From assembly GCA_942492995.1 (NCBI GenBank), contig OW818653.1:120001-152000 (forward strand): a DNA stretch of 32,000 bases. Reading direction: 5' to 3'. Of this stretch, positions 4,010-24,303 are shown piece by piece (position 1 is the first letter of the stretch; every line of letters begins with the position of its first letter). The position numbers and the translations under genes were made by a program. The notes beneath the pieces are model-generated. The model made no database searches, was not told the DNA's origin, and saw nothing but the letters and a program-made list of their open reading frames with translations. The stretch is from an uncultured Erysipelotrichaceae bacterium (GTDB lineage Bacteria > Bacillota_I > Bacilli_A > Erysipelotrichales > Erysipelotrichaceae).

Positions 4010-5883
4010 AAATAGCGATGGCACAATTAAATATTCAAGCTGGACAAATTGATGTGAATCTTAAGCATATGCATCAATTGGTTTTAGATGCGAAAAGTGA
4101 TAATGCGGATCTAATTGTGTTTCCTGAAATGGCTGTTGGAGGTTATTTAATCTCTGATCTTTACCTACAAGAATCGTTTGTGTCACAGTTAACACATGCG
4201 AATGAAGTGATTAAATCATGGTCAAAGGATATAGGGATTATCTGGGGAAATATTAGTCATAATGAATCTGCTAAACGTAATCGCGATGGTCGTTTTAATC
4301 GCTATAATACCGCATTCTTTGCGTATCAAAATGAATGGGTACAAAAAGAAAATAACTTGAATAATGGACATTACTATAAACATTGTCTACCAGATTATCG
4401 TTTCTTTGATGACTCACGTTATTTCAAGAGTGGTTACGATCATGCGCTAGAAAATAATCTTTCATTAACCGATACAATTAATCCATTTATCTTTATTAAA
4501 GAAAAGAAATCGTATCGAATTGGATTAGAGATTTGTGAAGATTTATGGAGTAAAGATTACAATGTCGATCCTACCGATATCTACATTAAACAGAATGTGG
4601 ATTTTATCGTGAATATATCATCATCCCCTTGGACTCTAAACAAAGAATTAAGTCGTGAGAAACGTATTATGGAACATGTGAAAACACATGGTGAACAGAT
4701 GGTTCCTTTTGTGTATGTCAATGCGAGTGGTATGCAGAATAATGGGAAGAATGTCTTAGTGTTTGATGGGGATAGTACGATTTATCGAAAGGATGGATCG
4801 GTTTTAGGCCAATGTAAGGATGATTTAAAACAAGATTGTTTAACCTTTGATTTAGATAAAACTTATCCAGTTCATACCCAAACGAATAAGTTATTAAATG
4901 GTATATTAACAGCGATTACTGAGTTTGATAAACAAGTACTACCGTTTAAACCAAAATGGATTATTGGATTATCGGGTGGAATTGATAGTAGTGTGAATGC
5001 GGCTTTATTGTGTATGGCCTTAGGCAATGATCGTGTTATTGCCTATAATATGGCAAGTCGATATAACCAAGCACAATCCAAAAATATAGCGTATGAAACT
5101 GCACAAAAATTAGGCATTGAATATCATGCAGGAAGTATTGAAGAATTAGTCCATGCGACTGAATCGACCCTAACTCAATATCAGATTGAACCCAAAGAAG
5201 GTTTAGCGTATGAGAATATCCAAGCGCGTTTAAGAGGACATTTATTGTCATCTTTCGCATCGTATAAAGGTGGCGTTATTTGTAATAATGGGAATAAAGT
5301 AGAAGTTGCGCTAGGTTATGCGACCTTGTATGGAGATACAATTGGCGCATTAAGTCCTATAGGTGATTGTACAAAACTTCAAGTCTTTGAATTAGCACAT
5401 GCGATAAACAATCAATATAATCAGATGATCATCGATTCTAACTTAATTCCAGTAATTGAGAATCATACAATTCATTTTGGATTTGCGCCAAGTGCTGAAC
5501 TTAAAACAAATCAAGTCGATCCGATGAAATGGGTTTATCATGATTGGTTGGTTCAATATCTAATTCAATATCCAAGTCATCATATTCTTGATTGGTTAAA
5601 AACCTATCAATCAGGTGAATGGAAGAAAACAGAAGTTGCAGATTGGATGATGTACTATGGATTAGATAATCCAAACGTATTTATCGAAGATATCCGATGG
5701 TTTATGAAGGCATGGCATTCTGCTATCTTCAAACGTATTCAATTCCCTCCAATCGTGACAGTAAGTCGTGGTAGCTTTGGGTATGATTATCGTGAGAGTC
5801 AATTGCCTTACATTGAAAACCATGAAGTTGAAGTGTGTATTAATGAAATATTAAAGGGAAAAACGAATGAAAAAATGGATTGA
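4006..5883 (+). CDS. nadE: glutamine-dependent NAD+ synthetase
   Basis: The N-terminal CN-hydrolase domain has catalytic-type motifs VFPEMAV and LEICEDLW. The C-terminal NAD synthetase domain has the PP-loop GLSGGIDSS. Confidence 0.9.
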   Translation: MKIAMAQLNIQAGQIDVNLKHMHQLVLDAKSDNADLIVFPEMAVGGYLISDLYLQESFVSQLTHANEVIKSWSKDIGIIWGNISHNESAKRNRDGRFNRYNTAFFAYQNEWVQKENNLNNGHYYKHCLPDYRFFDDSRYFKSGYDHALENNLSLTDTINPFIFIKEKKSYRIGLEICEDLWSKDYNVDPTDIYIKQNVDFIVNISSSPWTLNKELSREKRIMEHVKTHGEQMVPFVYVNASGMQNNGKNVLVFDGDSTIYRKDGSVLGQCKDDLKQDCLTFDLDKTYPVHTQTNKLLNGILTAITEFDKQVLPFKPKWIIGLSGGIDSSVNAALLCMALGNDRVIAYNMASRYNQAQSKNIAYETAQKLGIEYHAGSIEELVHATESTLTQYQIEPKEGLAYENIQARLRGHLLSSFASYKGGVICNNGNKVEVALGYATLYGDTIGALSPIGDCTKLQVFELAHAINNQYNQMIIDSNLIPVIENHTIHFGFAPSAELKTNQVDPMKWVYHDWLVQYLIQYPSHHILDWLKTYQSGEWKKTEVADWMMYYGLDNPNVFIEDIRWFMKAWHSAIFKRIQFPPIVTVSRGSFGYDYRESQLPYIENHEVEVCINEILKGKTNEKMD

Positions 5884-7009
5884 TAGTAATCACTTATCGC
5901 TTATTCTTTCATTGATTATTGCGGGATTATTTATCATCCTAATCTATTTCATGTTTCTTAATGTGAATGTTATCTTAACATCACTGTCTAATCTTATTAG
6001 TGTACTATCTCCATTTATCTATGGTTTATCTATAGCGTTTTTAATGGGTCCTCTTGTCGCTTTCTTTGAGAAGAAGGTATTCATTCGATTTAAATGGAAA
6101 CAGAAGCTAAACCGCTTAATATCGATTATTGTGTCATTACTTATAACGATTGGTGTAATCATATTATTCTTCTCATTTGTTATACCTCAAGTGATTCTAA
6201 GTATCGGTTCAATCAGTGAAAAACTCCCTCAATATATGAGTGAAGTTGAGAATTTATTAGGTGCGAACTTCGCGGCATATCGTGAAACCTACGATTGGTT
6301 AAACATCATCGTAGATTCATCTGAAGATCTACTATTAAGTCTAATTAATTCTCTACAAACGTATTTACCGTATGTATTAGATTATTCCATTCAAATCACT
6401 AAGACGATATTTAGTATTATTATGGGACTTGCGATTGCGGTATATATATTATTAGAAAAAGAACGTTTTGCCCTTCAAATCAAGAAGTTGATGTATGCGA
6501 TATTTGGTCAAAAGACCGGTGATTATCTAATCGATTTAAGTCGTTTATCCTCTAATATGATTCATCGATTTATCTTAGGTCAATCCTTTGACTCTATGAT
6601 TGTCGGGATATTATGTTTTATCGGTATGAGTTTTATGGGACTTGCGTATCCTGTTCTAATAAGTGTTATATTCGGTGTTATGAGTATAATTCCAGTATTC
6701 GGACCTTTCATTGGGGCAGTACCAGGAGCACTCATTCTTATTCTTATCGAACCAATCCAAGCCTTATGGTTTGTGATCTATATCATCGTCCTTCAACAAT
6801 TCGATGGTAATGTATTAGGACCTCGTATTTTAGGGGATTCCATGGGTTTACCAAGTTTATGGATCATGTTTGCGATTATAGTCGGTGGAGGATATTTCGG
6901 GGTGGTGGGTATGTTCCTAGGTGTTCCTATTTTCGCTGTAATCTATATCATTTCTAAGAAGTTGATTACACAACGATTAGACAAAGAATCAATCCAAATA
7001 AAAACTTAG
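5867..7009 (+). CDS. AI-2E family transporter (PerM/UPF0118)
   Basis: 380 aa and polytopic, with a family-typical C-terminal block: IPVFGPFIGAVPGALI...QQFDGNVLGPRILGDSMGLPSLWIMFAI. Overlaps the nadE end by 17 nt. Confidence 0.85.
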   Translation: MKKWIDSNHLSLILSLIIAGLFIILIYFMFLNVNVILTSLSNLISVLSPFIYGLSIAFLMGPLVAFFEKKVFIRFKWKQKLNRLISIIVSLLITIGVIILFFSFVIPQVILSIGSISEKLPQYMSEVENLLGANFAAYRETYDWLNIIVDSSEDLLLSLINSLQTYLPYVLDYSIQITKTIFSIIMGLAIAVYILLEKERFALQIKKLMYAIFGQKTGDYLIDLSRLSSNMIHRFILGQSFDSMIVGILCFIGMSFMGLAYPVLISVIFGVMSIIPVFGPFIGAVPGALILILIEPIQALWFVIYIIVLQQFDGNVLGPRILGDSMGLPSLWIMFAIIVGGGYFGVVGMFLGVPIFAVIYIISKKLITQRLDKESIQIKT

Positions 7010-7029
7010 GCAAGTACCTAAGTTTTTTT
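7005..7029. terminator. bidirectional terminator between the AI-2E gene and glnN
   Basis: CTTAGG (7005-7010) CAAGTA CCTAAG (7017-7022) followed by T7. An A-run upstream supplies the T-tract for the minus strand. Confidence 0.6.
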
Positions 7030-7034
7030 ATGCA

Positions 7035-9107
7035 TTAATCAAGTAGGAACAATAAGTCCAAGTAACTAGGGAATGGATACATGTTACGAGGTAACACTAA
7101 TTCTAGTTTATCCACATCTTCACGTATTTCATCGAATAATGGGAATACATCATGACGTAATGCTAAACCTTCTTCTTTAAGTGATTCAATATGATGAGTC
7201 TTATCTAAGTTAACTTTTAACTTCGTTAGTTTCGCATCAATGGAATCCACAAACCCAAGTATTGTATTGATTTGTTTATCGTAGAACGCATAACCTTTTA
7301 AGCCAAGAATTGAACTTAGGTAGATTGTAGTTTGAGGGACAACTTCACGCTCAACCATACGAATTAATGTTTTAGCTTCAACTTGAATGGTCTTAATATA
7401 TTGTTCATATAGAATTTCAGAACGTGCAGCTAATTCATTTGTAGTAAATACCGCATTGCGTTCAAATAATTTAGTCGCTTTATCATCATCCAAGAACTCT
7501 ACAGCTTCAACGAAAGATTTGATGTTTGGTAAGCCACGTTCTTCTGCTTCTATAACCCATGCATCAGAGTAACCATCTCCACTAAACAATACACGGTGAT
7601 GTTTACGCATGATTTCTTGAATAATCTTAAGTGCTTCATCACGTACATCTTGTAAGTATTTGAAATCATCTAAACGATCCGCAACTTCTTTTAATGCGTC
7701 CGCAACGATTGTACTAATAACCGTATTTGCGAATGAAGCAGATAGGGAAGAACCTAACATTCTTAATTCAAACTTATTACCAGTAAACGCAAATGGAGAT
7801 GTACGGTTACGGTCAGTGTTATCTTTTGGCATGTAGGATAAGTTATTCAATGCGGAGAATTTAGCGCCTTCTTTGTTGGTCTTTAAGACTTTCTTATCGG
7901 CTAAGTTCAATAGAATTTGTTCCACTACATCACCCATAAATACAGAGATGATTGCTGGAGGAGCTTCGTTCGCACCTAAACGATGATCATTACCAGGACC
8001 TGAAGCAGCTAAACGAATTAATTCTGGGAATTCATCAATTGCCTTGATAATCGCAGAAACGAATAATAAGAAACGAATATTTTCATGTGGTTTATCACCT
8101 GGTTCTAATAAGTTTTGACCATCATCCGTAATCAATGACCAGTTATTATGTTTACCTGAACCATTAATACCCTTAAATGGTTTTTCATGTAATAAACATG
8201 CTAGATCATGTTTGATTGCGATTTTCTTTAATAAGTCCATTAAAATTTGGTTTTGATCAACCGCAATATTCGCTTCCGCAAAGATAACAGAGAATTCAAA
8301 TTGACCAGGCGCAACTTCATTATGTTCAACTTTAGAGAATACACCGACTTTCCAAAGTTCTGTATTTACTTCATCCATATATGCTTTAACGCGTGCAGGA
8401 ATTGATCCGAAATAATGATCTTCGAATTCTTGTCCACGTGGAGCGCTTGCGCCTAATAAGGTTCTACCCGTTAAGAGTAAATCTTTACGTTCTTCATACA
8501 TTGATTTATCAACTAGGAAATATTCTTGTTCAAGTCCAACGGATAAATTAACATGTTTAACTTGTTTATCACCTAATGTTTGTACAACACGACTTGCCTC
8601 AAAACTTAAACGATCAAGTGCTTTTAATAATGGAGCTTTTTGATCAAGTGGTTCGCCATTGTACGATACGAAAATAGAAGGAATACATAAGACGTTATCA
8701 CGAATGAAAGCAGGCGAACTAATATCCCAGTACGTATAGCCACGTGCTTCGAATGTTGCACGTAAACCACCACTTGGGAAACTTGAACCATCTGTTTCAC
8801 CTTTAATTAAACCTTTGCCAGAGAATTGTGCTAATGCACTACCATCTTTCGCAACTTCTAAGAAACTATCATGTTTTTCTGCAGTTTGACCAGTAAGTGG
8901 TTGGAACCAATGTGTAAAGTGAGTAGCTCCTAATTCCATTGCCCATGTTTTCATCGCATGTGCAATCGCGTCTGCTGTCCCACGATCTAAAGCACTTTCT
9001 TTCGCTAGTGCTGTTTTCCAACTCGTGTAAACAGGATACGGTAAACGTTCGCGCATTAATTTCTCGCCAAATAAATGAATTCCAAAATCATCAAAAGGGT
9101 GTGACAT
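7035..9107 (-). CDS. glnN: glutamine synthetase, type III
   Basis: 690 aa, about twice the length of GSI. The N-terminal region is GSIII-like (FGEKLMRERLPYPVYTSWK...THFTHWFQPLTG), followed by a catalytic core (HNEVAPGQFEFS, KPFKGINGSGKHNNWS). SD AAGGAG. Confidence 0.9.
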   Translation of the reverse strand: MSHPFDDFGIHLFGEKLMRERLPYPVYTSWKTALAKESALDRGTADAIAHAMKTWAMELGATHFTHWFQPLTGQTAEKHDSFLEVAKDGSALAQFSGKGLIKGETDGSSFPSGGLRATFEARGYTYWDISSPAFIRDNVLCIPSIFVSYNGEPLDQKAPLLKALDRLSFEASRVVQTLGDKQVKHVNLSVGLEQEYFLVDKSMYEERKDLLLTGRTLLGASAPRGQEFEDHYFGSIPARVKAYMDEVNTELWKVGVFSKVEHNEVAPGQFEFSVIFAEANIAVDQNQILMDLLKKIAIKHDLACLLHEKPFKGINGSGKHNNWSLITDDGQNLLEPGDKPHENIRFLLFVSAIIKAIDEFPELIRLAASGPGNDHRLGANEAPPAIISVFMGDVVEQILLNLADKKVLKTNKEGAKFSALNNLSYMPKDNTDRNRTSPFAFTGNKFELRMLGSSLSASFANTVISTIVADALKEVADRLDDFKYLQDVRDEALKIIQEIMRKHHRVLFSGDGYSDAWVIEAEERGLPNIKSFVEAVEFLDDDKATKLFERNAVFTTNELAARSEILYEQYIKTIQVEAKTLIRMVEREVVPQTTIYLSSILGLKGYAFYDKQINTILGFVDSIDAKLTKLKVNLDKTHHIESLKEEGLALRHDVFPLFDEIREDVDKLELVLPRNMYPFPSYLDLLFLLD

Positions 9108-9178
9108 CGTTTTTCTCCTTGATTTAAATATGTCTTAATTCTAGCGATAAAATTAAAAAAGTAAAGAAAAATCAGAAA

Positions 9179-9213
9179 AATATTTAAAATATTGATTAAA
9201 TATTTCAAATATT
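9179..9213. repeat. two 15-bp palindromes AATATTT-N-AAATATT spaced 20 bp centre to centre, upstream of glnN
   Basis: 9179-9193 is AATATTTAAAATATT and 9199-9213 is AATATTTCAAATATT. Each has perfect 7-bp inverted arms. They lie upstream of a candidate glnN promoter on the minus strand (TAGAAT = 9143-9138, TTTACT = 9165-9160). Confidence 0.4.
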
Positions 9214-9274
9214 AATAGAATTATTGAATTTTTATAATAAATCATAGATATAAATCGTAAATATTCACAAAACA

Positions 9275-9301
9275 TAAAAAAAGACTAGATTTAACTAGTC
9301 T
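9275..9301 (-). terminator. rho-independent terminator of the nifU-like/PAP2 operon
   Basis: AGACTAG (9282-9288) / CTAGTCT (9295-9301). On the minus strand a T-run (plus-strand A-run 9276-9281) follows. The stop codon lies inside the stem. Confidence 0.6.
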
Positions 9302-9525
9302 ACAACGATTACTTCTGTTACACCTAATACTTCTTCGATGAGTAAGGTCTCGACTCCCATCTTGATTGTTACATCGATGGCACTACATCCTACACATGCG
9401 CCAAATACGCGAACATAAACACGACCTTCATCATCTAGGCTTACAAATTCAACGTCACCACCATCTCGTTGGAGATAGGGACGGATTTTATCTAAAACAT
9501 CTTTTACTTCTTTTTCTATATTCAT
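9295..9525 (-). CDS. NifU-like Fe-S cluster scaffold domain protein (Nfu type)
   Basis: 76 aa with IRPYLQRDGGDVEFV...GACVGCSAIDVTIK, which is the NifU C-terminal CxxC domain. Confidence 0.85.
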   Translation of the reverse strand: MNIEKEVKDVLDKIRPYLQRDGGDVEFVSLDDEGRVYVRVFGACVGCSAIDVTIKMGVETLLIEEVLGVTEVIVVD

Positions 9526-15578: not shown

Positions 15579-17078
15579 ATGAAATTTAACTTTAGAGTTT
15601 CTCCGAACTATCGTGCACCGTTAAGTACACAACGTATTATGACGGAGTTGACAGTTGGGATTGCGTTAGTTCTATCTTATTCAGTTTATTTCTATTTCAC
15701 TATATTAGGTTCTGATTATGGTATGCATGCGTTATTAATGATTGCGACTGCATTGGGTACTGCAATCGGTGTTGAAGTTTTATGGGCATTATTCTATAAG
15801 AAGAATATTCTAAAACACTTAAATACATCATTCCCATGGGTTACCGCATTATTATATGTTGGGATGATGGGGATAAACAAACCACTTTATGTCATCTTTA
15901 TTGGTAGTTTCATCGCTATCTTTATCGGTAAATTAGTGTTTGGTGGATTTGGTCATAATATCTTTAATCCAGCTGGTGTTGGTCGTGCTGTATCTGTATT
16001 ATCATTCGGTGGATTTATTACTGATAAATTTGCGGATGTGATTACAGGTGCTACACCAAACCAAGTTATGGAAACATTAGGTTGGGTTATTAAAGATCCA
16101 GCGTTAGTAACTCAATATTTAGATAAATTCGGTGGTTTATGGGGCTTAGCAACTGGCGGTTATGTCGGTGGTCTAGGTGAAACGAATACCTTATTAATCT
16201 TAGCTGTTGGGGTTTACTTAGCTGTTCGTAAAATTATTGACTGGAGAGTTCCAGTTGTATTCTTAGGTTCATTATTTGCGTTTGCGTCAATTCTTGCGTT
16301 CATGAAAGGTATGGGAGTTTGGTATCCAATATTCCATGTCGTTACAGGTGGTGCAGCGTTTGGGGCAATCTTCATGTTAACAGATCCTGTTACAAGTCCT
16401 ACTTCTATTCCTGGACGTATCGTATTCGCATTTGGAGTTGCTTTATTAGCGTTCCTTATCCGTGTTAAAGGCAGTTTACCTGAAGGGGTTATTCGTTCAA
16501 TCTTATTTATGAATATGATGACACCTTTAATTGACCGTGCATTTGATGGATGGGCATTTGAAAAAGTTAAGAAATATGCAATTTCATTAACAGTTATTGG
16601 AGCTTTAGGGTTCCTTACAGTAGGTGTATTTGCGAATCAAGTTAATTATATTGCGCCAGTTGTAGAAGAAGAACCAGTTGTGACAGTATCACTTAAGGGT
16701 GAACCACTTGTTATTTCACAGGAAACGTCTCCTACTGCAGTTGTCGTATCTGAAACAGCAGATGGTGATGTTACTACATTCGTTGTTAATATTAATGGTT
16801 ATGCATTCTCAAGTGACCATGATGAAGATCCTAAACCAAATACATTAGAAGTGAAAGTTAATACAGCAACACAAACATTAGTTAGCGTTGCATACGTAAC
16901 GTTCTCAGATTCTAAGGGTATTGGTGATAAGACGAATAATGAAGTATTCTTGTCTCAATTTGCAGGATTATCGATTGTTGATGCGACTGCATCTGCTGAC
17001 GTAGTGTCTGGTGCTACTGTTACTTCAACTTCCGTTATTCGTGCTGTAAATGCTGCAATTACTGCGGCATTGGATTAA
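15579..17078 (+). CDS. rnfD: Rnf subunit D fused to an extra TM helix and a C-terminal FMN-binding (RnfG/NqrC-like) domain
   Basis: The polytopic RnfD/NqrB core carries the flavinylation motif TGAT (16044-16055) and MLTDPVTSP. After AFDGWAFEKVKK comes one more TM (ISLTVIGALGFLTVGVF, about 16575-16635) and an acidic/Val-Pro linker. Then a domain ends in VVSGATVTSTSVIRAVNAA, with SGAT at 17007-17018. Confidence 0.9.
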   Translation: MKFNFRVSPNYRAPLSTQRIMTELTVGIALVLSYSVYFYFTILGSDYGMHALLMIATALGTAIGVEVLWALFYKKNILKHLNTSFPWVTALLYVGMMGINKPLYVIFIGSFIAIFIGKLVFGGFGHNIFNPAGVGRAVSVLSFGGFITDKFADVITGATPNQVMETLGWVIKDPALVTQYLDKFGGLWGLATGGYVGGLGETNTLLILAVGVYLAVRKIIDWRVPVVFLGSLFAFASILAFMKGMGVWYPIFHVVTGGAAFGAIFMLTDPVTSPTSIPGRIVFAFGVALLAFLIRVKGSLPEGVIRSILFMNMMTPLIDRAFDGWAFEKVKKYAISLTVIGALGFLTVGVFANQVNYIAPVVEEEPVVTVSLKGEPLVISQETSPTAVVVSETADGDVTTFVVNINGYAFSSDHDEDPKPNTLEVKVNTATQTLVSVAYVTFSDSKGIGDKTNNEVFLSQFAGLSIVDATASADVVSGATVTSTSVIRAVNAAITAALD

Positions 17079-18250: not shown

Positions 18251-18823
18251 ATGGAACTATTTTCATTATTCTTTTCAGCCATTGTTATTAATAACGTTGT
18301 ATTAACAAAGTTCTTAGGTATGTGTCCATTACTTGGTGTTTCACGTAAAACGAGTTCTGCTATTGGTATGGGTGCTGCTGTAGTCTTCGTAATCTTCGGA
18401 TCATCAATCTTTACGTATGTACTTTACTACAATGTACTTGTACCTCTAAATCTTCAATACATGGATTTAATTACATTTATCCTTGTTATTGCGGCATTCG
18501 TACAATTCGTTGAATTAATTCTTAAGAAGTATTCAACCGTTCTTTATAAAGCATTAGGTATCTACTTACCATTAATTACGACTAACTGTGTTGTTCTATA
18601 TGTTACTTTAATTAACATTACTGAAGGCTTCACATTTGTTGAAATGTTAGTGTATTCATTAGCAACGCCTATTGGATTCATGATGGTTCTTTATATCTTC
18701 TCAACAATCCGTGAAAGACTTGATTATGCGGATGTTCCAAATGCATTTAAAGGTAATCCTATTGCCTTAATCGTTGCGGCGATTATGGCTGGTATCTTTA
18801 CTAGTTTTGTAGGTTTAATCTAA
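18251..18823 (+). CDS. rnfA: Rnf subunit A
   Basis: 190 aa. Motifs LGMCPLLGVS and LPLITTNCVVL are typical of RnfA/NqrE. Confidence 0.9.
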   Translation: MELFSLFFSAIVINNVVLTKFLGMCPLLGVSRKTSSAIGMGAAVVFVIFGSSIFTYVLYYNVLVPLNLQYMDLITFILVIAAFVQFVELILKKYSTVLYKALGIYLPLITTNCVVLYVTLINITEGFTFVEMLVYSLATPIGFMMVLYIFSTIRERLDYADVPNAFKGNPIALIVAAIMAGIFTSFVGLI

Positions 18824-18824
18824 T

Positions 18825-19004
18825 ATGGAAGCGATTCTTTACTTAGCCGCTTTAGGTGGGTTCTATGGATTGGTTTATTTCTTAAATCATAAAACTCCTC
18901 GTCCTGCAGGTTGTGAAGAAATTGAAGCGACTTGTGGTTCATGTTCGTTGGGACATTGTGGGAATCACCCATCTCAACAGATTAAGGAGATAAAAAATGC
19001 TTAA
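18825..19004 (+). CDS. untracked 59-aa membrane-anchored Cys-rich protein (RnfB-N-terminal-like / FeoB-associated Cys-rich peptide-like)
   Basis: MEAILYLAALGGFYGLVYFLNHKTPRPAGCEEIEATCGSCSLGHCGNHPSQQIKEIKNA. It fills the whole rnfA-rnfB gap: the ATG is 1 nt after the rnfA stop and the end overlaps the rnfB start by 8 nt. One TM is followed by C-x6-CGSCSLGHC. It falls below the ORF-track length cut-off, and the SD is weak. Confidence 0.55.
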   Translation: MEAILYLAALGGFYGLVYFLNHKTPRPAGCEEIEATCGSCSLGHCGNHPSQQIKEIKNA

Positions 19005-19299
19005 TGCTAGTTTAATGATGTTGGTTTTAGGTGCTGCATTAGGATTGTTATTAGCGATTGCTGGTAAATTTCTATATGTTGAAGTTGATACTCGTGTTGA
19101 ACAGATTACTGGCATGTTACCTGGTTATAACTGTGGTGCATGTGGGTATGCTGGTTGTGCGGGCTTAGCTGAAGCATTAGTTAATGGCGAAGCTAAGAGT
19201 CCTACGCAATGTAAACCTTCTACTGAAGCGCATCGTTCACGTATTACAGCTTTCATGGAAACCGGTGTGGATCCAGTTGAAAGTGCACACGCTCACTAA
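18997..19299 (+). CDS. rnfB: truncated-type Rnf subunit B (TM anchor plus single Fe-S domain, no ferredoxin domains)
   Basis: Strong SD AAGGAG. One N-terminal TM, then LPGYNCGACGYAGCAGLAEALVNGE...QCKP (CGACGYAGC = 19132-19158). It ends after 100 aa and runs directly into a terminator. Confidence 0.8.
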   Translation: MLNASLMMLVLGAALGLLLAIAGKFLYVEVDTRVEQITGMLPGYNCGACGYAGCAGLAEALVNGEAKSPTQCKPSTEAHRSRITAFMETGVDPVESAHAH

Positions 19300-19301
19300 T
19301 T

Positions 19302-19328
19302 AGACAAACGAAAGTTTGTCTTTTTTTT
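19302..19328 (+). terminator. rho-independent terminator of the rnf operon
   Basis: AGACAAAC (19302-19309) GAAA GTTTGTCT (19314-19321) followed by T7-8. Confidence 0.85.
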
Positions 19329-19372
19329 AGGTTAAATCAAAAATAAAGCATAAGTATGAATGAGGTGATTAT

Positions 19373-19735
19373 ATGAAAGGTATCATTCAAGCTTATGCTT
19401 TATTTGTCTTATTGATGGGAATATCACTTGGTTTCATGATTTATATACATGTCGATTCTATTCACTATATATCACGCTTAATCCTTAAACAAAGTATTCA
19501 TGAATCACTCGTTCAGCTTGATCCCATGCAAAATGCAGAGCGTATAGATTCGTATAATTCTGTGATTAATGAAATTATCATGCTAAGGAAACCAGATGAT
19601 TTTGACTACAGCGTAAATGTTGTTGGCTTTCACCCTAATCCATTAGCGATGCGAGTTAAGTTGAATGTGAGTCATATTGGAAGTAATTCTAAAACGTGGG
19701 TATTTGATGAAATGATGATAGAGGTGAATTCATGA
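19373..19735 (+). CDS. small membrane-anchored protein, putative TadE/TadF-like pseudopilin
   Basis: SD GAGGTGA. The N-terminus MKGIIQAYALFVLLMGISLGFMIY resembles those of the two other pilin-like ORFs in the locus. First gene of the Tad-like module. The functional call rests on context and the N-terminus only. Confidence 0.5.
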   Translation: MKGIIQAYALFVLLMGISLGFMIYIHVDSIHYISRLILKQSIHESLVQLDPMQNAERIDSYNSVINEIIMLRKPDDFDYSVNVVGFHPNPLAMRVKLNVSHIGSNSKTWVFDEMMIEVNS

Positions 19736-20436
19736 TAAATAAAAACAGGTTAATAATTACTGGAATCGTTCTATGTATTACGTTAGTTGTAATAGGTGTG
19801 AGTGTGTTGTATATCAAACATGAACTAGAGTTAGTTGAAGTGTATGTTGCGAAAGAGGATTTAGGTGCTAGAACGTTATTGGATGATAATCAAATCACGA
19901 TCATTAAAGTACCGAAAGCTTATTTAAGTGAGAACGTATTGATTAAGAAGAATGATATTGTTGGTAAATACATAAAGTTAAATTCATCTATTCCAAAAGG
20001 AAGTTTAATCTATAAATCTACGATTGAATCGATTGATGATGCGATAGATGAGCCGACATTGCTTTTGAATGTTAATCAGGCGGTGTTTGCGATCGATGTG
20101 AATATAAGTAGTACTTCAGGTAATACCTTGCAGAAGGGCTCTAAAATTGATTTGTATGCAACAATCAAAAGTAATCGAGAGACAATTGTAGACTTATTAT
20201 TTAAACAGGTAAGAGTATTGAGTATTAAGGATAAAAATGGAAATGAAGTTAACAATGAAACAAATCAAATCCCTAAGATAATGTTAATTGCGGTAGATCA
20301 AGTAGAAATACCAATTCTTACGAAAGTTATTGCAATTGGTGATATTACAATCACTCCAACATCTGAATTCTTTAGTGAAGATGAATGTATTCTATATGAA
20401 TCATCGAATATATTAGGGTATCTCTATGCTCAATGA
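19732..20436 (+). CDS. cpaB: Flp pilus assembly protein CpaB/RcpC-like (TM + SAF domain)
   Basis: N-terminal TM, then a SAF-like VEVYVAKEDLGARTLLDDNQITIIKVPKAYL...GKYIKLNSSIPKGSLI. CpaB-like blocks follow: NQAVFAIDVNISSTSGNTLQKGSKIDLYATI, VRVLSIKD and IMLIAVDQVEIPILTKVIAIGDITITP. Confidence 0.7.
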   Translation: MINKNRLIITGIVLCITLVVIGVSVLYIKHELELVEVYVAKEDLGARTLLDDNQITIIKVPKAYLSENVLIKKNDIVGKYIKLNSSIPKGSLIYKSTIESIDDAIDEPTLLLNVNQAVFAIDVNISSTSGNTLQKGSKIDLYATIKSNRETIVDLLFKQVRVLSIKDKNGNEVNNETNQIPKIMLIAVDQVEIPILTKVIAIGDITITPTSEFFSEDECILYESSNILGYLYAQ

Positions 20437-21424
20437 ATTTGACTTTGGGATAATTCAACCACAAATTAATGATCCATTTATTACGGATATTAACTACAAT
20501 GGGAAACAAGTTTGGGTAGATCATTTGAAGAAAGGTCGATATCCAATTGAACCATTTCTTGCGCATGACGCAATTCAATCACTCGTATATAAAATAGCGA
20601 ACTACGTTAACTTACCTTTTAATACAACATCACCAGTTCTAGAAGCTGAAACAACGGAATTACGAATAAGTATTTTGCATCAAAGTATCGCGCGTGGAGG
20701 ATTAAGTTTATCGATACGTAAAACGCCATCCGTGTGTCGACTACATGACACTGAAACAGGCATAAAACACTATGCGCCAGATTGGGTGATTGAGTTTCTG
20801 AAAGACGCAATATTAGCGCGAAAGAACGTAATGATAAGTGGTTTACCAGGATCAGGTAAGACAGAGTTTGTTAAATATTTAATGGAAAGTATTCCTGCGT
20901 ATCAAAGGGTAATCACAATCGAAGATAGTCTTGAACTAAGGTATGGAGATATTCATCCTAAAAAAGATCATGTGATGTTAAAGGTTCAAGAACACTTTAG
21001 CTATGAAAAAGCGATAAAGACTAGTTTAAGACAAAGACCTGATTGGATATGTGTTTCGGAAATTCGAGGTACAGAAATAATCTATCTTTTACAAAGTATT
21101 TCAACAGGTACAAGTTTAATTAGTACAGTACATGCGGAAAGTGCATACGCAATACCTTATCGAATGATGATAATGATGCCAGGATCAGAGTTAACGAATC
21201 AAAGTATCAATACCTTAATCCATGACAGTTTAGATATAGGCGTACATTTAGAGATACAAATAACGAATAAAGGTGTACTCCGTAATATACGAGAAGTTGT
21301 TTATTTTGATGTGAATGATCAATACGAAGGAACAAAACATACAATTTATCATAAAAATGAAAAAAGTAAAATTATCAAATTTAAACGGTTTATGGAAGAA
21401 ACATCACAAATTAAATCTGAATGA
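20426..21424 (+). CDS. tadA: type II/IV secretion system ATPase (TadA/CpaF/VirB11 family)
   Basis: ITDINYNGKQVWV and LSIRKTP, Walker A GLPGSGKT, Asp box VITIEDSLEL, Walker B region RQRPDWICVSEIRGTE, His box STVHAES. 332 aa. Confidence 0.85.
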   Translation: MLNEFDFGIIQPQINDPFITDINYNGKQVWVDHLKKGRYPIEPFLAHDAIQSLVYKIANYVNLPFNTTSPVLEAETTELRISILHQSIARGGLSLSIRKTPSVCRLHDTETGIKHYAPDWVIEFLKDAILARKNVMISGLPGSGKTEFVKYLMESIPAYQRVITIEDSLELRYGDIHPKKDHVMLKVQEHFSYEKAIKTSLRQRPDWICVSEIRGTEIIYLLQSISTGTSLISTVHAESAYAIPYRMMIMMPGSELTNQSINTLIHDSLDIGVHLEIQITNKGVLRNIREVVYFDVNDQYEGTKHTIYHKNEKSKIIKFKRFMEETSQIKSE

Positions 21425-22136
21425 GTATAGTTTAATCTTCATTGAAATTATTGTGACATTAATGTTTGGGTATCTCTTTGAATTACCCTATATGTATTTA
21501 ATTATATTGCTTGGAGTTGCTCTCTTCTTAACACCATTCTTTATCCATTTTCAATTAAAGTGGAAAAGTGAAGAACGCGATTTCTATCAATTGACGGATT
21601 TCTTACAACAGTTTCTAGCAAGTTTTAAACAACATCCTAAAATATACGCTTCATTAATTGAATGTAAAGATCATACAGATGGGGTATTAAATGAATCAAT
21701 AAATACATGGATAGATGGTTTAGAAAAGGGAGGATTTCCCAAGCAATATGCAGAGGTATTTATACAGTCACAATCCCATTTTATTATTTCTAATCTAGTT
21801 CATCTTATGTTAGCGGTAGAGAATTATGGAACATTTAATTATTTTGAAGGATTAGAGATTATCCAAGATGATATTGAAGATTGGATAGAAGATACGACAT
21901 TATTTAAACTTGAACAAATACGAACTCGAAATCGGATTCAAGTATTGTCAATATTTGCGTGTGGAATTGCATGGATGAGCCACAATATGTTGTTTAGAAC
22001 CGAGATGATAGAGACGTTAGACTTTTATTACTTTAGTTTGTTTGTATTCTTGATATTAATCTTACTTACATTGTTCTTTTCACAAAAACTTGTATCTGTC
22101 CCATGGATTGAAAGAAGTGAGAAATTATGGGAGTAA
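21357..22136 (+). CDS. tadB: TadB-like platform membrane protein (T2SSF-like)
   Basis: TM helices flank a soluble helical segment (FYQLTDFLQQFLASFKQHPKIYASLIEC...), as in TadB/TadC. The start is uncertain. ATG 21315 and ATG 21357 both lie inside tadA and neither has an SD. I chose 21357 (MKKVKLSNL..., basic N-terminus before TM1). Confidence 0.55.
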   Translation: MKKVKLSNLNGLWKKHHKLNLNEYSLIFIEIIVTLMFGYLFELPYMYLIILLGVALFLTPFFIHFQLKWKSEERDFYQLTDFLQQFLASFKQHPKIYASLIECKDHTDGVLNESINTWIDGLEKGGFPKQYAEVFIQSQSHFIISNLVHLMLAVENYGTFNYFEGLEIIQDDIEDWIEDTTLFKLEQIRTRNRIQVLSIFACGIAWMSHNMLFRTEMIETLDFYYFSLFVFLILILLTLFFSQKLVSVPWIERSEKLWE

Positions 22137-22876
22137 TCATCATATTATTCTTGTTTGGTATTTGGGTATTAATTGATCCAAAAATAGAAGAACGATTAAA
22201 TGTTAAATCGACACAATTGATTAAAATTGAACAGATACTTGGAATTGAATTGAATGAAACATGGAATAAGAAACGGTATAGGAATGTTAAGTTGTTACGT
22301 TGGGTTATTTTACTAACCTTAGTATTACCAAACACATTACTAATTACTTTACTAACGATATTAATCTGTATATTTAGTTATTGGTTACCTGTTCTTAAAC
22401 TTAAGCGTAAAGTACAAATAAAAATTGTTAGTATTCGTTATCAATTCCCAATCTATCTAAGACAGATTCAAGTATTACTTCAAAATAATACAGTGGTTAA
22501 ATCAATTGAATTATCACTCGATTATGTACCAACTGTTCTATATCAAGATATAAAGAATTTACATGAAAAGATTAAAATAGATCCTTTAAACATGAATCAC
22601 TATATCAATTGTATGAAACAGTACGATTTACCTGAAATACAACGATCGATGAAATGGTTGTATCGTTACCAAAACTTTGGGTATCAAGATGCGAATCATC
22701 AGTTTAATCGTATGTTAGTTTCGACATCGAAGTGGTTAAGAAAGTCACGAATTGAAAAAAAGAATGAATCAATTCAAGTGTATCAGTGGATGGGAATGTT
22801 GCCACTTGTTGGGGTAACATTCGTGTTTATATCTGCGATGATGAGTGTTGTTATCTCATTATTTGAAAGGGGGTGA
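22127..22876 (+). CDS. tadC: TadC-like platform membrane protein (T2SSF-like)
   Basis: 249 aa with N-terminal TMs, a soluble helical segment (IRYQFPIYLRQIQVLLQNNTVVKSIELSLDYVP...) and a C-terminal TM. Paralogous architecture to the preceding gene, with a 10-nt overlap. Confidence 0.55.
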   Translation: MGVIIILFLFGIWVLIDPKIEERLNVKSTQLIKIEQILGIELNETWNKKRYRNVKLLRWVILLTLVLPNTLLITLLTILICIFSYWLPVLKLKRKVQIKIVSIRYQFPIYLRQIQVLLQNNTVVKSIELSLDYVPTVLYQDIKNLHEKIKIDPLNMNHYINCMKQYDLPEIQRSMKWLYRYQNFGYQDANHQFNRMLVSTSKWLRKSRIEKKNESIQVYQWMGMLPLVGVTFVFISAMMSVVISLFERG

Positions 22877-22880
22877 AGAG

Positions 22881-23024
22881 ATGAAAGCGTTTTTTGAAGA
22901 GTATGGATTAGTATTAGTGGTTACGGTTATTGCGACTGGTATGATTGTTTTCTCAGAAGGGTTTAAGGATACGATGCAAGCGACATTAGAGACTCAATGG
23001 ACACAAATGACTGAGAGCGACTAA
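22881..23024 (+). CDS. flp: untracked 47-aa Flp-type pilin
   Basis: MKAFFEEYGLVLVVTVIATGMIVFSEGFKDTMQATLETQWTQMTESD. Strong SD (GAAAGGGGGTGAAGAG) sits directly before the ATG. An EYGL motif is followed by a hydrophobic helix, as in Flp/Fap pilins. It lies between tadC-like and tadE-like genes, and its stop overlaps the next start (TAATG). Confidence 0.7.
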   Translation: MKAFFEEYGLVLVVTVIATGMIVFSEGFKDTMQATLETQWTQMTESD

Positions 23025-23362
23025 TGAAGGGTGCATTTGAAACAGCTTTAGTAATTCTATTTGGAATGATGTTTATGGTGATGGGGATTGATTACATGCG
23101 TGTTGTGTTAATGAACAATAAAGCTAGATTGTATGCGGAGAACATACTAGCAATTATTGAACATCAAAATCGATATGACATTGATGTCGAAGAGTTAATT
23201 CAAGCGAGTAGTGTTAAATGCTCAGAATGTAATTATCAAATTATTGAGCATACACTATCAAGTAATCGACTGTGGATCATCGTAACGTATCCAATAGAAA
23301 TGAGTCATTTGAATTATTTTGCGCATACAGATATTCGTTTATTGACTCGTCCCTTAGCTTAG
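23024..23362 (+). CDS. TadE-like pseudopilin
   Basis: 112 aa. The N-terminus MKGAFETALVILFGMMFMVMGIDYMRV resembles the TadE-like N-terminal motif (ExALxxP-type hydrophobic segment). Last gene of the module. Confidence 0.55.
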   Translation: MKGAFETALVILFGMMFMVMGIDYMRVVLMNNKARLYAENILAIIEHQNRYDIDVEELIQASSVKCSECNYQIIEHTLSSNRLWIIVTYPIEMSHLNYFAHTDIRLLTRPLA

Positions 23363-23386
23363 TGCAGTTCAAACTGCACTTTCTTT
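23361..23386 (+). terminator. rho-independent terminator after the Tad-like module
   Basis: AGTGCAGT (23361-23368) TCAA ACTGCACT (23373-23380) followed by TTCTTTGTG. Confidence 0.65.
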
Positions 23387-23387
23387 G

Positions 23388-23396
23388 TGTTAAAAT
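23388..23396 (+). promoter_or_regulatory. extended -10 (TGTTAAAAT) placed for a leaderless coaX transcript
   Basis: TGT at 23388-90 and TAAAAT at 23391-96. Exactly 6 nt (AGAACC) separate it from ATG 23403, and there is no SD. Confidence 0.45.
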
Positions 23397-24224: not shown

Positions 24225-24303
24225 GGCGGTCGTGGCGAAGTTGGTTAACGCACCGGATTGTGGTTCCGGCATTCCGCGGGTTCGAGCCCCGTCGGCCGCC
24301 CCA
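24225..24303 (+). tRNA. tRNA-His (anticodon GTG)
   Basis: Hand fold. Acceptor GCGGTCG/CGGCCGC, with the extra G-1 (24225) opposite discriminator C. Anticodon arm CCGGA-TTGTGGT-TCCGG. T arm GCGGG-TTCGAGC-CCCGT. CCA is encoded (24301-24303). Confidence 0.9.

Follow-up and report, generated by a model that had tools for sequence, protein, structure and literature searches.

Analysis of a 32,000-nucleotide (nt) stretch of an uncultured Erysipelotrichaceae genome (contig OW818653.1, positions 120,001 to 152,000; hereafter the window) revealed seven co-directional open reading frames (ORFs), g1 to g7, all on the + strand between window positions 19373 and 23362. We propose, with a probability of roughly 0.65, that this locus, as a self-contained operon, encodes a minimal Tad-like (type IVc-like) filament machine and belongs to the ancestral Erysipelotrichaceae chromosome. 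The initial annotation of the window had described a compact Tad/Flp-type module made of a CpaB-like protein, a short ATPase, two platform-like proteins, a Flp-like protein of 47 amino acids (aa) and two flanking pseudopilin-like proteins. This composition holds, and searches with family hidden Markov models (HMMs) support part of it: the T2SSE, RcpC and SAF assignments pass their curated thresholds, while the TadB/TadC, Flp and TadE labels stay below theirs.

The product of g3 matches the Pfam family T2SSE with an E-value of 3e-26 and 92.3 bits (cut-off 24.9). Its best NCBIfam match is the VirB11 model (2e-40, 138.7 bits), below the cut-off of 249.95, and the TadA-type model (5.5e-32) also stays below its own cut-off; both cut-offs are set at the equivalog level, and the subfamily assignment of g3 stops at the clade. 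Compared to PDB sequences, g3 is about equally close to VirB11 (3e-19), archaeal GspE (9e-18), CpaF (5e-17) and FlaI (5e-14). The motifs read earlier from the sequence, GLPGSGKT, ITIEDSLEL, RPDWICVSEIRGTE and STVHAES, can all be recognised and coincide with columns that are invariant in an alignment of 16 sequences; g3 thus has the T2SSE domain with Walker A, Asp box, Walker B and His box of a CpaF/TadA-type secretion ATPase. The protein is also as short as had been noted: its residues 6-276 align to residues 147-424 of the 501 residues of CpaF, and it is therefore the bare core of a secretion ATPase of the CpaF/TadA-VirB11-FlaI clade. A protein search returned 660 homologues of g3, named CpaF family in their source, and an exact-sequence look-up of g3 itself returned no record. 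For many of these homologues, the precomputed Pfam annotation includes PF27713.1, a domain that does not appear in the Pfam scan of g3 from the window.

The g2 product passes two Pfam cut-offs, scoring 31.4 bits on RcpC, where 28.8 is required, and 22.9 bits on SAF, where 21 is required. It consists of an N-terminal transmembrane (TM) anchor at residues 7-25, followed by the SAF (36-99) and RcpC (112-206) domains. Its match to the CpaB model TIGR03177 (5e-13) lies below the cut-off, and no match was obtained among PDB sequences. The gene is absent from 10 of the 53 related loci (L017-L020, L031, L034, L041-L043 and L053), which form a sub-clade and where the g1 homologue abuts the ATPase gene. 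The CpaB-like g2 is therefore accessory to a six-gene core, and the loci without CpaB keep the same six genes as the plasmid block described below.

The g4 and g5 products are both polytopic, with TM helices at residues 39-57, 59-77 and 237-255 of g4 and 2-20, 65-83 and 227-245 of g5, each completed by a cytoplasmic helical bundle. AlphaFold2 models of the two proteins, with predicted local distance difference test (pLDDT) values of 83.8 for g4 and 83.1 for g5, display the same layout of one TM helix, a helical bundle and a pair of TM helices. When these models were compared with known structures using Foldseek, g4 matched the N-domain of PilC (2whn_B, probability 0.97, TMt 0.58) and the cytoplasmic domain of EpsF (2vmb_A, TMt 0.59), and the best local matches of g5 were the cytoplasmic domain of EpsF (2vmb_B, TMt 0.69, root-mean-square deviation 3.3) and the GspF-like SpoIIIAB (6bs9_C, TMt 0.66), in all cases with non-significant E-values. 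The orthologue of g4 in locus L024 matches T2SSF with an E-value of 1.5e-4 (22.2 bits, under the cut-off of 25.2), and fused platform relatives of ~400-500 aa match the same family with E-values of 1e-3 and 2e-3; in relatives of about 500 aa, g5 corresponds to the C-terminal half of the fused platform. The large protein search yielded 47 homologues for g4 and 129 for g5, none with a Pfam domain; those that a source names are called 'hypothetical protein', save for one JGI 'TadB' label on a homologue of g5. Profile searches of both proteins against PDB sequences gave spurious coiled-coil matches only. The evidence is indirect but consistent, and g4 and g5 are predicted to be platform proteins with cytoplasmic bundles like those of PilC and GspF. 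The two are paralogous-looking, and sequence alone gives no established paralogy.

The three remaining proteins, g1, g6 and g7, are small and have a pilin-type N-terminal hydrophobic helix. In the window, all three start with M-K-G/A, and a Glu is fixed at residue 6 of g6 and g7. The g6 protein, MKAFFEEYGLVLVVTVIATGMIVF..., starts with MKAFFEEYG, has one TM helix and no real leader; its E-Y-G motif, its size and its single helix are Flp-like. No other protein of the module is as conserved, its identity being 66-90% where that of the ATPase is 43-70%, and residues M1, K2, F4, E6, E7, Y8, G9 and F24 are invariant in 25 sequences, including those from Lachnospiraceae. No Flp_Fap match was obtained for g6 of the window, and 3 of 25 relatives do match this family (best E-value 0.027). 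The g7 protein (MKGAFE...) has an N-terminal TM helix at residues 4-22 and a conserved CxxC motif. Its orthologues start with M-K-(G/A/L), with M1, K2 and E6 invariant and C66 and C69 nearly so; 14 of 33 match DUF4320 weakly (best 1.4e-3), and a single one matches TadE (0.058). The g1 protein combines an MKG start, a TM helix at residues 9-27 and a conserved C-terminal ETMIE motif, and its homologues start with M-K-(G/S/T/L). Pfam and NCBIfam scans gave no family match for g1 of the window; among its orthologues, 2 of 23 match DUF5411 weakly and none matches a pilin family.

No Gly precedes the EY motif of g6, which does not contain the class III cleavage site G/XXXXEY. A 59-aa ORF with a GTG start (22845-23024) was considered as a longer pilin precursor and rejected. 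The ATG at 22881 has a strong Shine-Dalgarno sequence in front of it and, in relatives, the pilin start codon comes directly after stop codons, which excludes a longer leader. That leaves two readings: either a peptidase encoded at another site trims one to three residues, or the pilins do without a prepilin peptidase. Under the first, the pilins would be cut after a three-residue MK[G/A] leader, whose Lys at -2 and Gly/Ala at -1 agree with the class III rule. Under the second, the pilins would undergo no processing. Residue 3 of the Lachnospiraceae pilin paralogues is variable and can be Glu or Arg, with Glu6 kept (MKEFLEEYG, MNRFVEKYG), and if Met1 alone were lost, every paralogue would have its Glu at the canonical position 5. 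It has already been noted that there are Gram-positive tad-like loci with no recognisable prepilins (Imam et al. 2011, PMC3244431). Should the M-K N-termini indicate that a prepilin peptidase is dispensable, the module would be an exception to a defining rule of type IV filaments.

The lack of a prepilin peptidase, TadZ and secretin, pointed out for the locus in the initial annotation, is confirmed for the 32-kb window among its ORFs of at least 100 aa, none of which matches an A24 family. Six-frame translations of the window and of 83 related loci (L001-L083, within 10 kb) contain no GxGDxK-type A24 motif, in a search that had no positive control. No ParA/CpaE-type protein (TadZ) was found among the ORFs of the window or the called genes of the Dielma locus, and no VirB4, VirD4, VirB6/B8 or relaxase in either of them. 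The Pfam scan of one Blautia locus gave no peptidase, TadZ or CpaB.

From these parts, we infer the assembly of a filament machine as follows. A hexameric g3 ATPase would dock on a heterodimeric platform of g4 and g5 and would extract the 47-aa Flp-like g6 from the membrane. The g6 subunits would then be polymerised into a thin helical filament, with g1 and g7 as putative minor or priming pilins, and a ring of the CpaB-like protein, acting as an extracytoplasmic collar, would guide the filament through the wall. By analogy, the role of the machine would most likely be adhesion or cell-to-cell contact, because its plasmid and Lachnospiraceae relatives adjoin large proteins of the cell surface, which on the plasmids carry the annotation of adhesins.

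Several observations weigh against this interpretation. The filament is so far a prediction made from the sequence. No curated HMM threshold is reached by g1, g4, g5, g6 or g7, and the Pfam and NCBIfam scans of g4 and g5 from the window gave no match to T2SSF or any other family. The Foldseek E-values of the platform models range from 0.37 to 2.4, the likeness being local and covering ~100-120 residues, and the hhalign probability between g4 and g5 is just 19%. A conservation as extreme as that of g6 is unusual for an exposed adhesive pilus. Finally, the A24 motif search ran without a positive control, and the rest of the genome could hold a gene for a prepilin peptidase; comG loci have been reported in Erysipelotrichales (Bulleidia paper, PMC12786226), and a ComC-type enzyme may therefore exist.

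The seven ORFs lie where the initial annotation had placed them, as confirmed by the ORF list, and the four overlaps described there are present, namely ATGA (19732-19735), stretches of 11 nt (20426-20436) and 10 nt (22127-22136), and TAATG (23022-23026). A further overlap, missing from that description, joins g3 and g4 over 68-110 nt depending on the start of g4. This start is ambiguous (21315 or 21357), and the first ~35 residues of g4 are unconserved, with pLDDT values below 50. In its longest reading, g4 overlaps the ATPase gene by 110 nt (21315-21424), and homologues are called 20-45 residues shorter. Compared to L001, the nearest relative (a metagenome-assembled genome of a soil Erysipelotrichaceae, with a 98% identical ATPase), all seven ORFs have Ka/Ks values between 0.014 and 0.16 (0.16 for g1, 0.016 for g6). 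All seven are therefore real genes under purifying selection.

The operon is delimited by two intrinsic hairpin terminators, both proposed earlier and borne out by a hairpin scan and by the sequence. They are the only terminator-like hairpins between positions 18800 and 24600, compared to a mean of 1.9 in shuffled sequence, and most relatives have an equivalent hairpin with a T-run 5' of the module. Between 19329 and 19372, the initial annotation had recognised no convincing promoter. A scan upstream of g1 indeed returned nothing that fits the sigma-70 consensus; positions 19329-19352, however, are occupied by a promoter-like motif with phylogenetic conservation. The architecture conserved in relatives consists of (T)TAGG[A/G/T], exactly 17 nt after AGG, C[A/G]TA, then 22-25 nt, which include a GAGGTG ribosome-binding site, and the start codon. 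The spacing between AGG and C[AG]TA is identical in 24 of the 24 g1-upstream regions that carry the motif, while the surrounding sequence is unconserved; two further regions have a variant motif in one case and a motif masked by N in the other. A strict version of the pattern is satisfied in 35 of 53 assessable loci. Scanning 2.6 Mb of loci with a position weight matrix (PWM) of the motif returned extra copies 5' of diverged first genes and, with regard to a regulon, no convincing copy away from the module. AGG-N17-CRTA is a non-sigma-70 promoter-like motif conserved across Erysipelotrichaceae. Its AGGA-type -35 is reminiscent of sigma-H-family promoters, and its CRTA -10 of extracytoplasmic function (ECF) or sporulation-type promoters; a paper on S. 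aureus SigH states no promoter consensus in its text. The motif could serve as an entry point to a sigma factor or regulon of Erysipelotrichaceae that is still uncharacterised. With this motif in front and terminators on both sides, the seven genes are co-transcribable and form a self-contained operon.

The promoter-like motif also bears on the main functional rival of an adhesion filament, namely a competence pseudopilus, a short wall-embedded filament for DNA uptake. The motif is conserved and differs from sigma-70 promoters, and a resemblance to sigma-H-family competence promoters would fit such a function, as would the very strong conservation of the pilin, which suits a non-exposed pseudopilus. 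Tad-like genes are needed for transformation in Micrococcus luteus (PMC4322843, PMC6370729). However, a vertically inherited comG operon has already been reported in Erysipelotrichales (PMC12786226), no comEA, comEC or dprA gene is found nearby, and the PWM scan gave no second copy of the promoter that would define a regulon. We therefore regard a role in competence as unlikely.

Outside the chromosomal clades, the closest relatives of g3 are found on Gram-positive plasmids of the pLS20 family and on Listeria pLM80-like plasmids. The 'VirB11-like ATPase' of pBatNRS213 (Bacillus atrophaeus, OK210094, pLS20 family) is 34% identical to g3 over 315 aa, with an E-value of 7e-45; the corresponding plasmid loci span positions 5383-9440 in pBatNRS213 (L083) and 5387-9425 in Listeria pLIS25 (L082). 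The plasmid ATPase ('putative VirB11', gene 37 of pLS20) is part of a block located just 3' of a thioester adhesin and just 5' of VirD4. This collinear block encodes a 126-aa single-TM protein (MKGSIM...), the ATPase, two polytopic proteins of 267 and 245 aa, a 120-aa DUF4320 protein and a 47-aa single-TM protein. With hhalign, g4 is matched to gene 38 (probability 80%, E-value 1.4e-5) and g5 to gene 39 (84%, 7e-6), compared to 2% for the crosswise pairs g4/gene 39 and g5/gene 38. The pairs g1/gene 36 and g7/gene 40 are positional counterparts with weak similarity (20-25%), and their sizes and TM layouts agree; homologues of gene 36 match DUF5411 (6e-5), and gene 40 of the pLS20 family is annotated as DUF4320. 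No sequence similarity was detected between g6 and gene 41 of pLS20. The module follows the collinear pattern of the pLS20 gene 36-41 block, with the last two genes swapped and CpaB as an extra gene. Both also do without a peptidase gene. The block differs from the module by an ATPase longer by 70-85 residues, by a 47-aa protein of unrelated sequence (MLDQNADRMYW...) and by its position among adhesins and genes of a type IV secretion system (T4SS; VirD4, VirB4).

This correspondence raises the possibility that the module derives from conjugation, as a sub-module either domesticated or shared, and that, being the chromosomal equivalent of pLS20 genes 36-41, it serves cell-to-cell DNA transfer or mating-pair formation rather than adhesion in general. 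The identity of the ATPases, the specific pairing of g4 and g5 with genes 38 and 39, the shared size, TM layout and weak DUF5411/DUF4320 links of g1 and g7, and the presence of a 47-aa single-TM gene on both sides speak for it. Against it, neither the window nor the related chromosomal loci contain VirD4, VirB4, a relaxase or VirB6, the two 47-aa proteins are dissimilar in sequence and the plasmid block has no CpaB gene. In addition, pLS20 genes 36 and 38-41 are themselves listed as unknown, with no pilus homologues encoded by the plasmid (PMC8557374). A conjugative function of the chromosomal module is thus quite improbable. Gram-positive conjugation seems to lack a pilus (2024 paper, PMC11730352). 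Literature searches found no paper linking pLS20 to pilins or Tad, and nothing relevant on Erysipelothrix pili or competence or on leaderless pilins. Homology with pLS20 genes 36-41 provides a testable idea for the block of 'VirB11 plus unknowns' on Gram-positive conjugative plasmids. A bolder proposal, which we hold to be doubtful, is that the module is the founding chromosomal case of an unrecognised branch of Bacillota type IV filaments with leaderless, peptidase-independent pilins, and that the same machine on the plasmids (pLS20 genes 36-41, Listeria pLM80-like) would be the long-missing conjugative or mating pilus of Gram-positive conjugation.

A second group of relatives is found in Lachnospiraceae and Eubacterium (L058-L080). 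Like the module, these loci encode pilins starting with MK[AGS]FLEEYG, an ATPase 40-45% identical to g3 and a g7-like protein (MRMGLE...), and contain no peptidase motif. They differ from it by a single fused platform protein of ~400-520 aa and by adjacent large secreted proteins. Up to five small MK..EEYG pilin paralogues are encoded per locus (e.g. L074 8984-12858, L078 9950-14138, L062 8581-11566). Inspection of these loci revealed neither a CpaB-like gene, for which tblastn also gave no match, nor any TadZ.

The distribution of the module was assessed by a profile scan with one genome per species, which gave 80 loci whose gene order was then checked by tblastn. The same order is found in 56 of the 80 loci, with ATPase identities down to 43%, and the carriers are labelled Erysipelotrichaceae, Erysipelothrix, Traorella, Dielma and the like. 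They include cultured organisms, namely Erysipelothrix inopinata DSM 15511, whose complete genome has the same seven ORFs, E. urinaevulpis and Dielma fastidiosa. The gene coaX lies directly 3' of the module in 33 of 42 assessable loci, and rnf lies on its 5' side in 27 of 47, directly in 21 of them and farther upstream in 6. The GC content of the module is 32.2%, a small dip compared to 35.4% in the rest of the window, and the spot counts given in the initial annotation (16/60, 28/60 and 21/60) are exact. The GC content at third codon positions (GC3) is 0.23-0.40 in the module genes and 0.20-0.26 in the flanking genes, and coaX is equally AT-rich. As the module genes do not fall below their flanks in GC3, and in view of the AT-richness of coaX, the GC dip reflects amino-acid composition.

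These data address the proposal that the module had been inserted between rnf and coaX, as a recently and horizontally acquired adhesion island. The slightly lower GC content, the frequent mobility of Tad loci (Denise 2019, PMC6668835) and the distant relatives on plasmids could be taken in its favour. However, the same gene order in 56 diverged loci, mostly with the same neighbours, the host-like GC3, equal to or above that of the flanks, and the lack of an integrase, repeats or a tRNA-flanked junction at the module all contradict it. The module is widely present and host-like in composition, which the initial annotation itself had said would speak against an island, and this part of it does not stand. 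Module DNA gave no match in plasmids and essentially none in viral contigs, where one marginal fragment was returned. An island is thus very improbable; the module has long belonged to the Erysipelotrichaceae chromosome, by vertical inheritance, and its recent import is essentially excluded. It is not phage-borne either, as phage records gave only 27-36% identical matches, mostly in unannotated faecal contigs. Three 'Bacteriophage sp.' contigs from human faeces (MT837507, MT835474 and MT835924) encode ATPases 30-36% identical to g3, with E-values down to 5e-61; these phage entries may in fact be pieces of plasmids or chromosomes.

A non-filament alternative, in which an ATPase-driven membrane complex would export or insert small hydrophobic peptides as a form of secretion without a pilus, could appeal to the lack of a canonical leader, to there being no prepilin peptidase in the window and the 83 loci and to the weak HMM support for pilin families, but it has very little probability against the conserved Glu, the EYG motif, the pilin-type helix, the CpaB-like ring protein and the PilC-like platform, which together read as a parts list of type IV filaments. 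In public data, five of the seven proteins are unannotated, yet the operon is conserved family-wide. As its carriers include gut commensals (Dielma, Traorella) and the genus Erysipelothrix, the minimal Tad-like module would constitute an unstudied surface or envelope machine of these bacteria.

Table 1. Positions in the window of the module genes and of the associated terminators and upstream elements
Feature	Position	Strand	Description
rnf operon terminator	19302-19328 (scan hit 19302-19321)	+	8-bp stem, GAAA loop, T8 tail; between rnfB and module
Promoter-like motif	19329-19352	+	AGG 19329-19331, exactly 17 nt, CATA 19349-19352
g1 ribosome-binding site	19362-19367	+	GAGGTG; ATG at 19373
g1	19373-19735	+	120 aa, pseudopilin-like
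g2	19732-20436	+	234 aa, CpaB/RcpC-like
g3	20426-21424	+	332 aa, secretion ATPase
g4	21315-22136 (start 21315 or 21357)	+	273 aa, predicted platform protein A, TadB-like
g5	22127-22876	+	249 aa, predicted platform protein B, TadC-like
g6	22881-23024	+	47 aa, Flp-like major pilin candidate; ATG preceded by GGGGGTGA
g7	23024-23362	+	112 aa, pseudopilin-like
Operon-closing terminator	23361-23386 (scan hit 23361-23380)	+	overlaps g7 stop codon; hairpin and T tail

The window as a whole is core chromosome, with genes for thiamin pyrophosphokinase, ftsA, ftsZ, NAD synthase, type III glutamine synthetase, pgi, apbE and rnfCDGEAB upstream of the module, and coaX (type III pantothenate kinase), tRNA-His, an opp ABC transporter and fba downstream of it. 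The FtsA-like protein encoded beside ftsZ (844-2079) scores on the Pfam family PilM_2 (9e-11); this score is due to a shared actin-like fold, and the gene serves cell division and is no pilus component. The rnf operon is unusual. RnfD (499 aa, 15579-17078) has an extra C-terminal RnfG/FMN-bind-like domain in addition to the separate RnfG, and RnfB (18997-19299) is only 100 aa long, corresponding to the N-terminal Fe-S part. A conserved Cys-rich ORF of 59 aa (18825-19004), without family match, precedes rnfB. On the other side of the module, a promoter-like site with an extended -10 (TTCAAA, 17 nt, TAAAAT; 23368-23396) lies inside the terminator region just 5' of coaX, and the tRNA-His gene is at 24226-24303, 3' of coaX.

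Compared to known systems, the module does not correspond to VirB/D4 type IV secretion: VirB11 is the best NCBIfam model for g3, and the partner genes are absent from the window and from the Dielma locus. It would share with the ComG system of Bacillota a type IV filament in a monoderm, a single ATPase and a platform. However, g3 scores only 68.1 bits on the ComGA model NF041000 (cut-off 300), which places it outside ComG. ComGB is a single two-domain platform, in contrast to the two predicted single-domain platform proteins of the module, and the ComGC pilins have a globular domain and a leader cleaved by ComC.

Gram-positive Tad loci with a known role, those of Bifidobacterium breve, Micrococcus luteus and Bulleidia extructa, have in common with the module a monoderm host, the lack of a secretin and a TadA-TadB-TadC-Flp-TadE core, which is a predicted one in the module. 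They differ in that they carry or depend on TadV and TadZ, and in that their pilins have normal leaders. The 13-gene tad operon of Bulleidia extructa starts with tadV and was judged to be horizontally acquired (PMC12786226), unlike the module. Compared to the Tad/Flp systems of Aggregatibacter actinomycetemcomitans and Caulobacter crescentus, the module lacks TadZ, TadV and a secretin, its ATPase is devoid of the N-terminal ~146 residues of CpaF, its pilin has no G/XXXXEY leader, and its platform, pilin and pseudopilin proteins stay under the Pfam thresholds of T2SSF, Flp_Fap and TadE. With these systems it shares an ATPase from the clade of CpaF and VirB11, two genes for separate, in the module predicted, platform proteins, a CpaB/RcpC protein with a SAF domain, a single-helix pilin of ~50 aa with the E-Y-G motif and small pseudopilin-like proteins. 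The succession of ATPase, platform, platform, pilin and pseudopilin genes is also that of Gram-positive tad loci.

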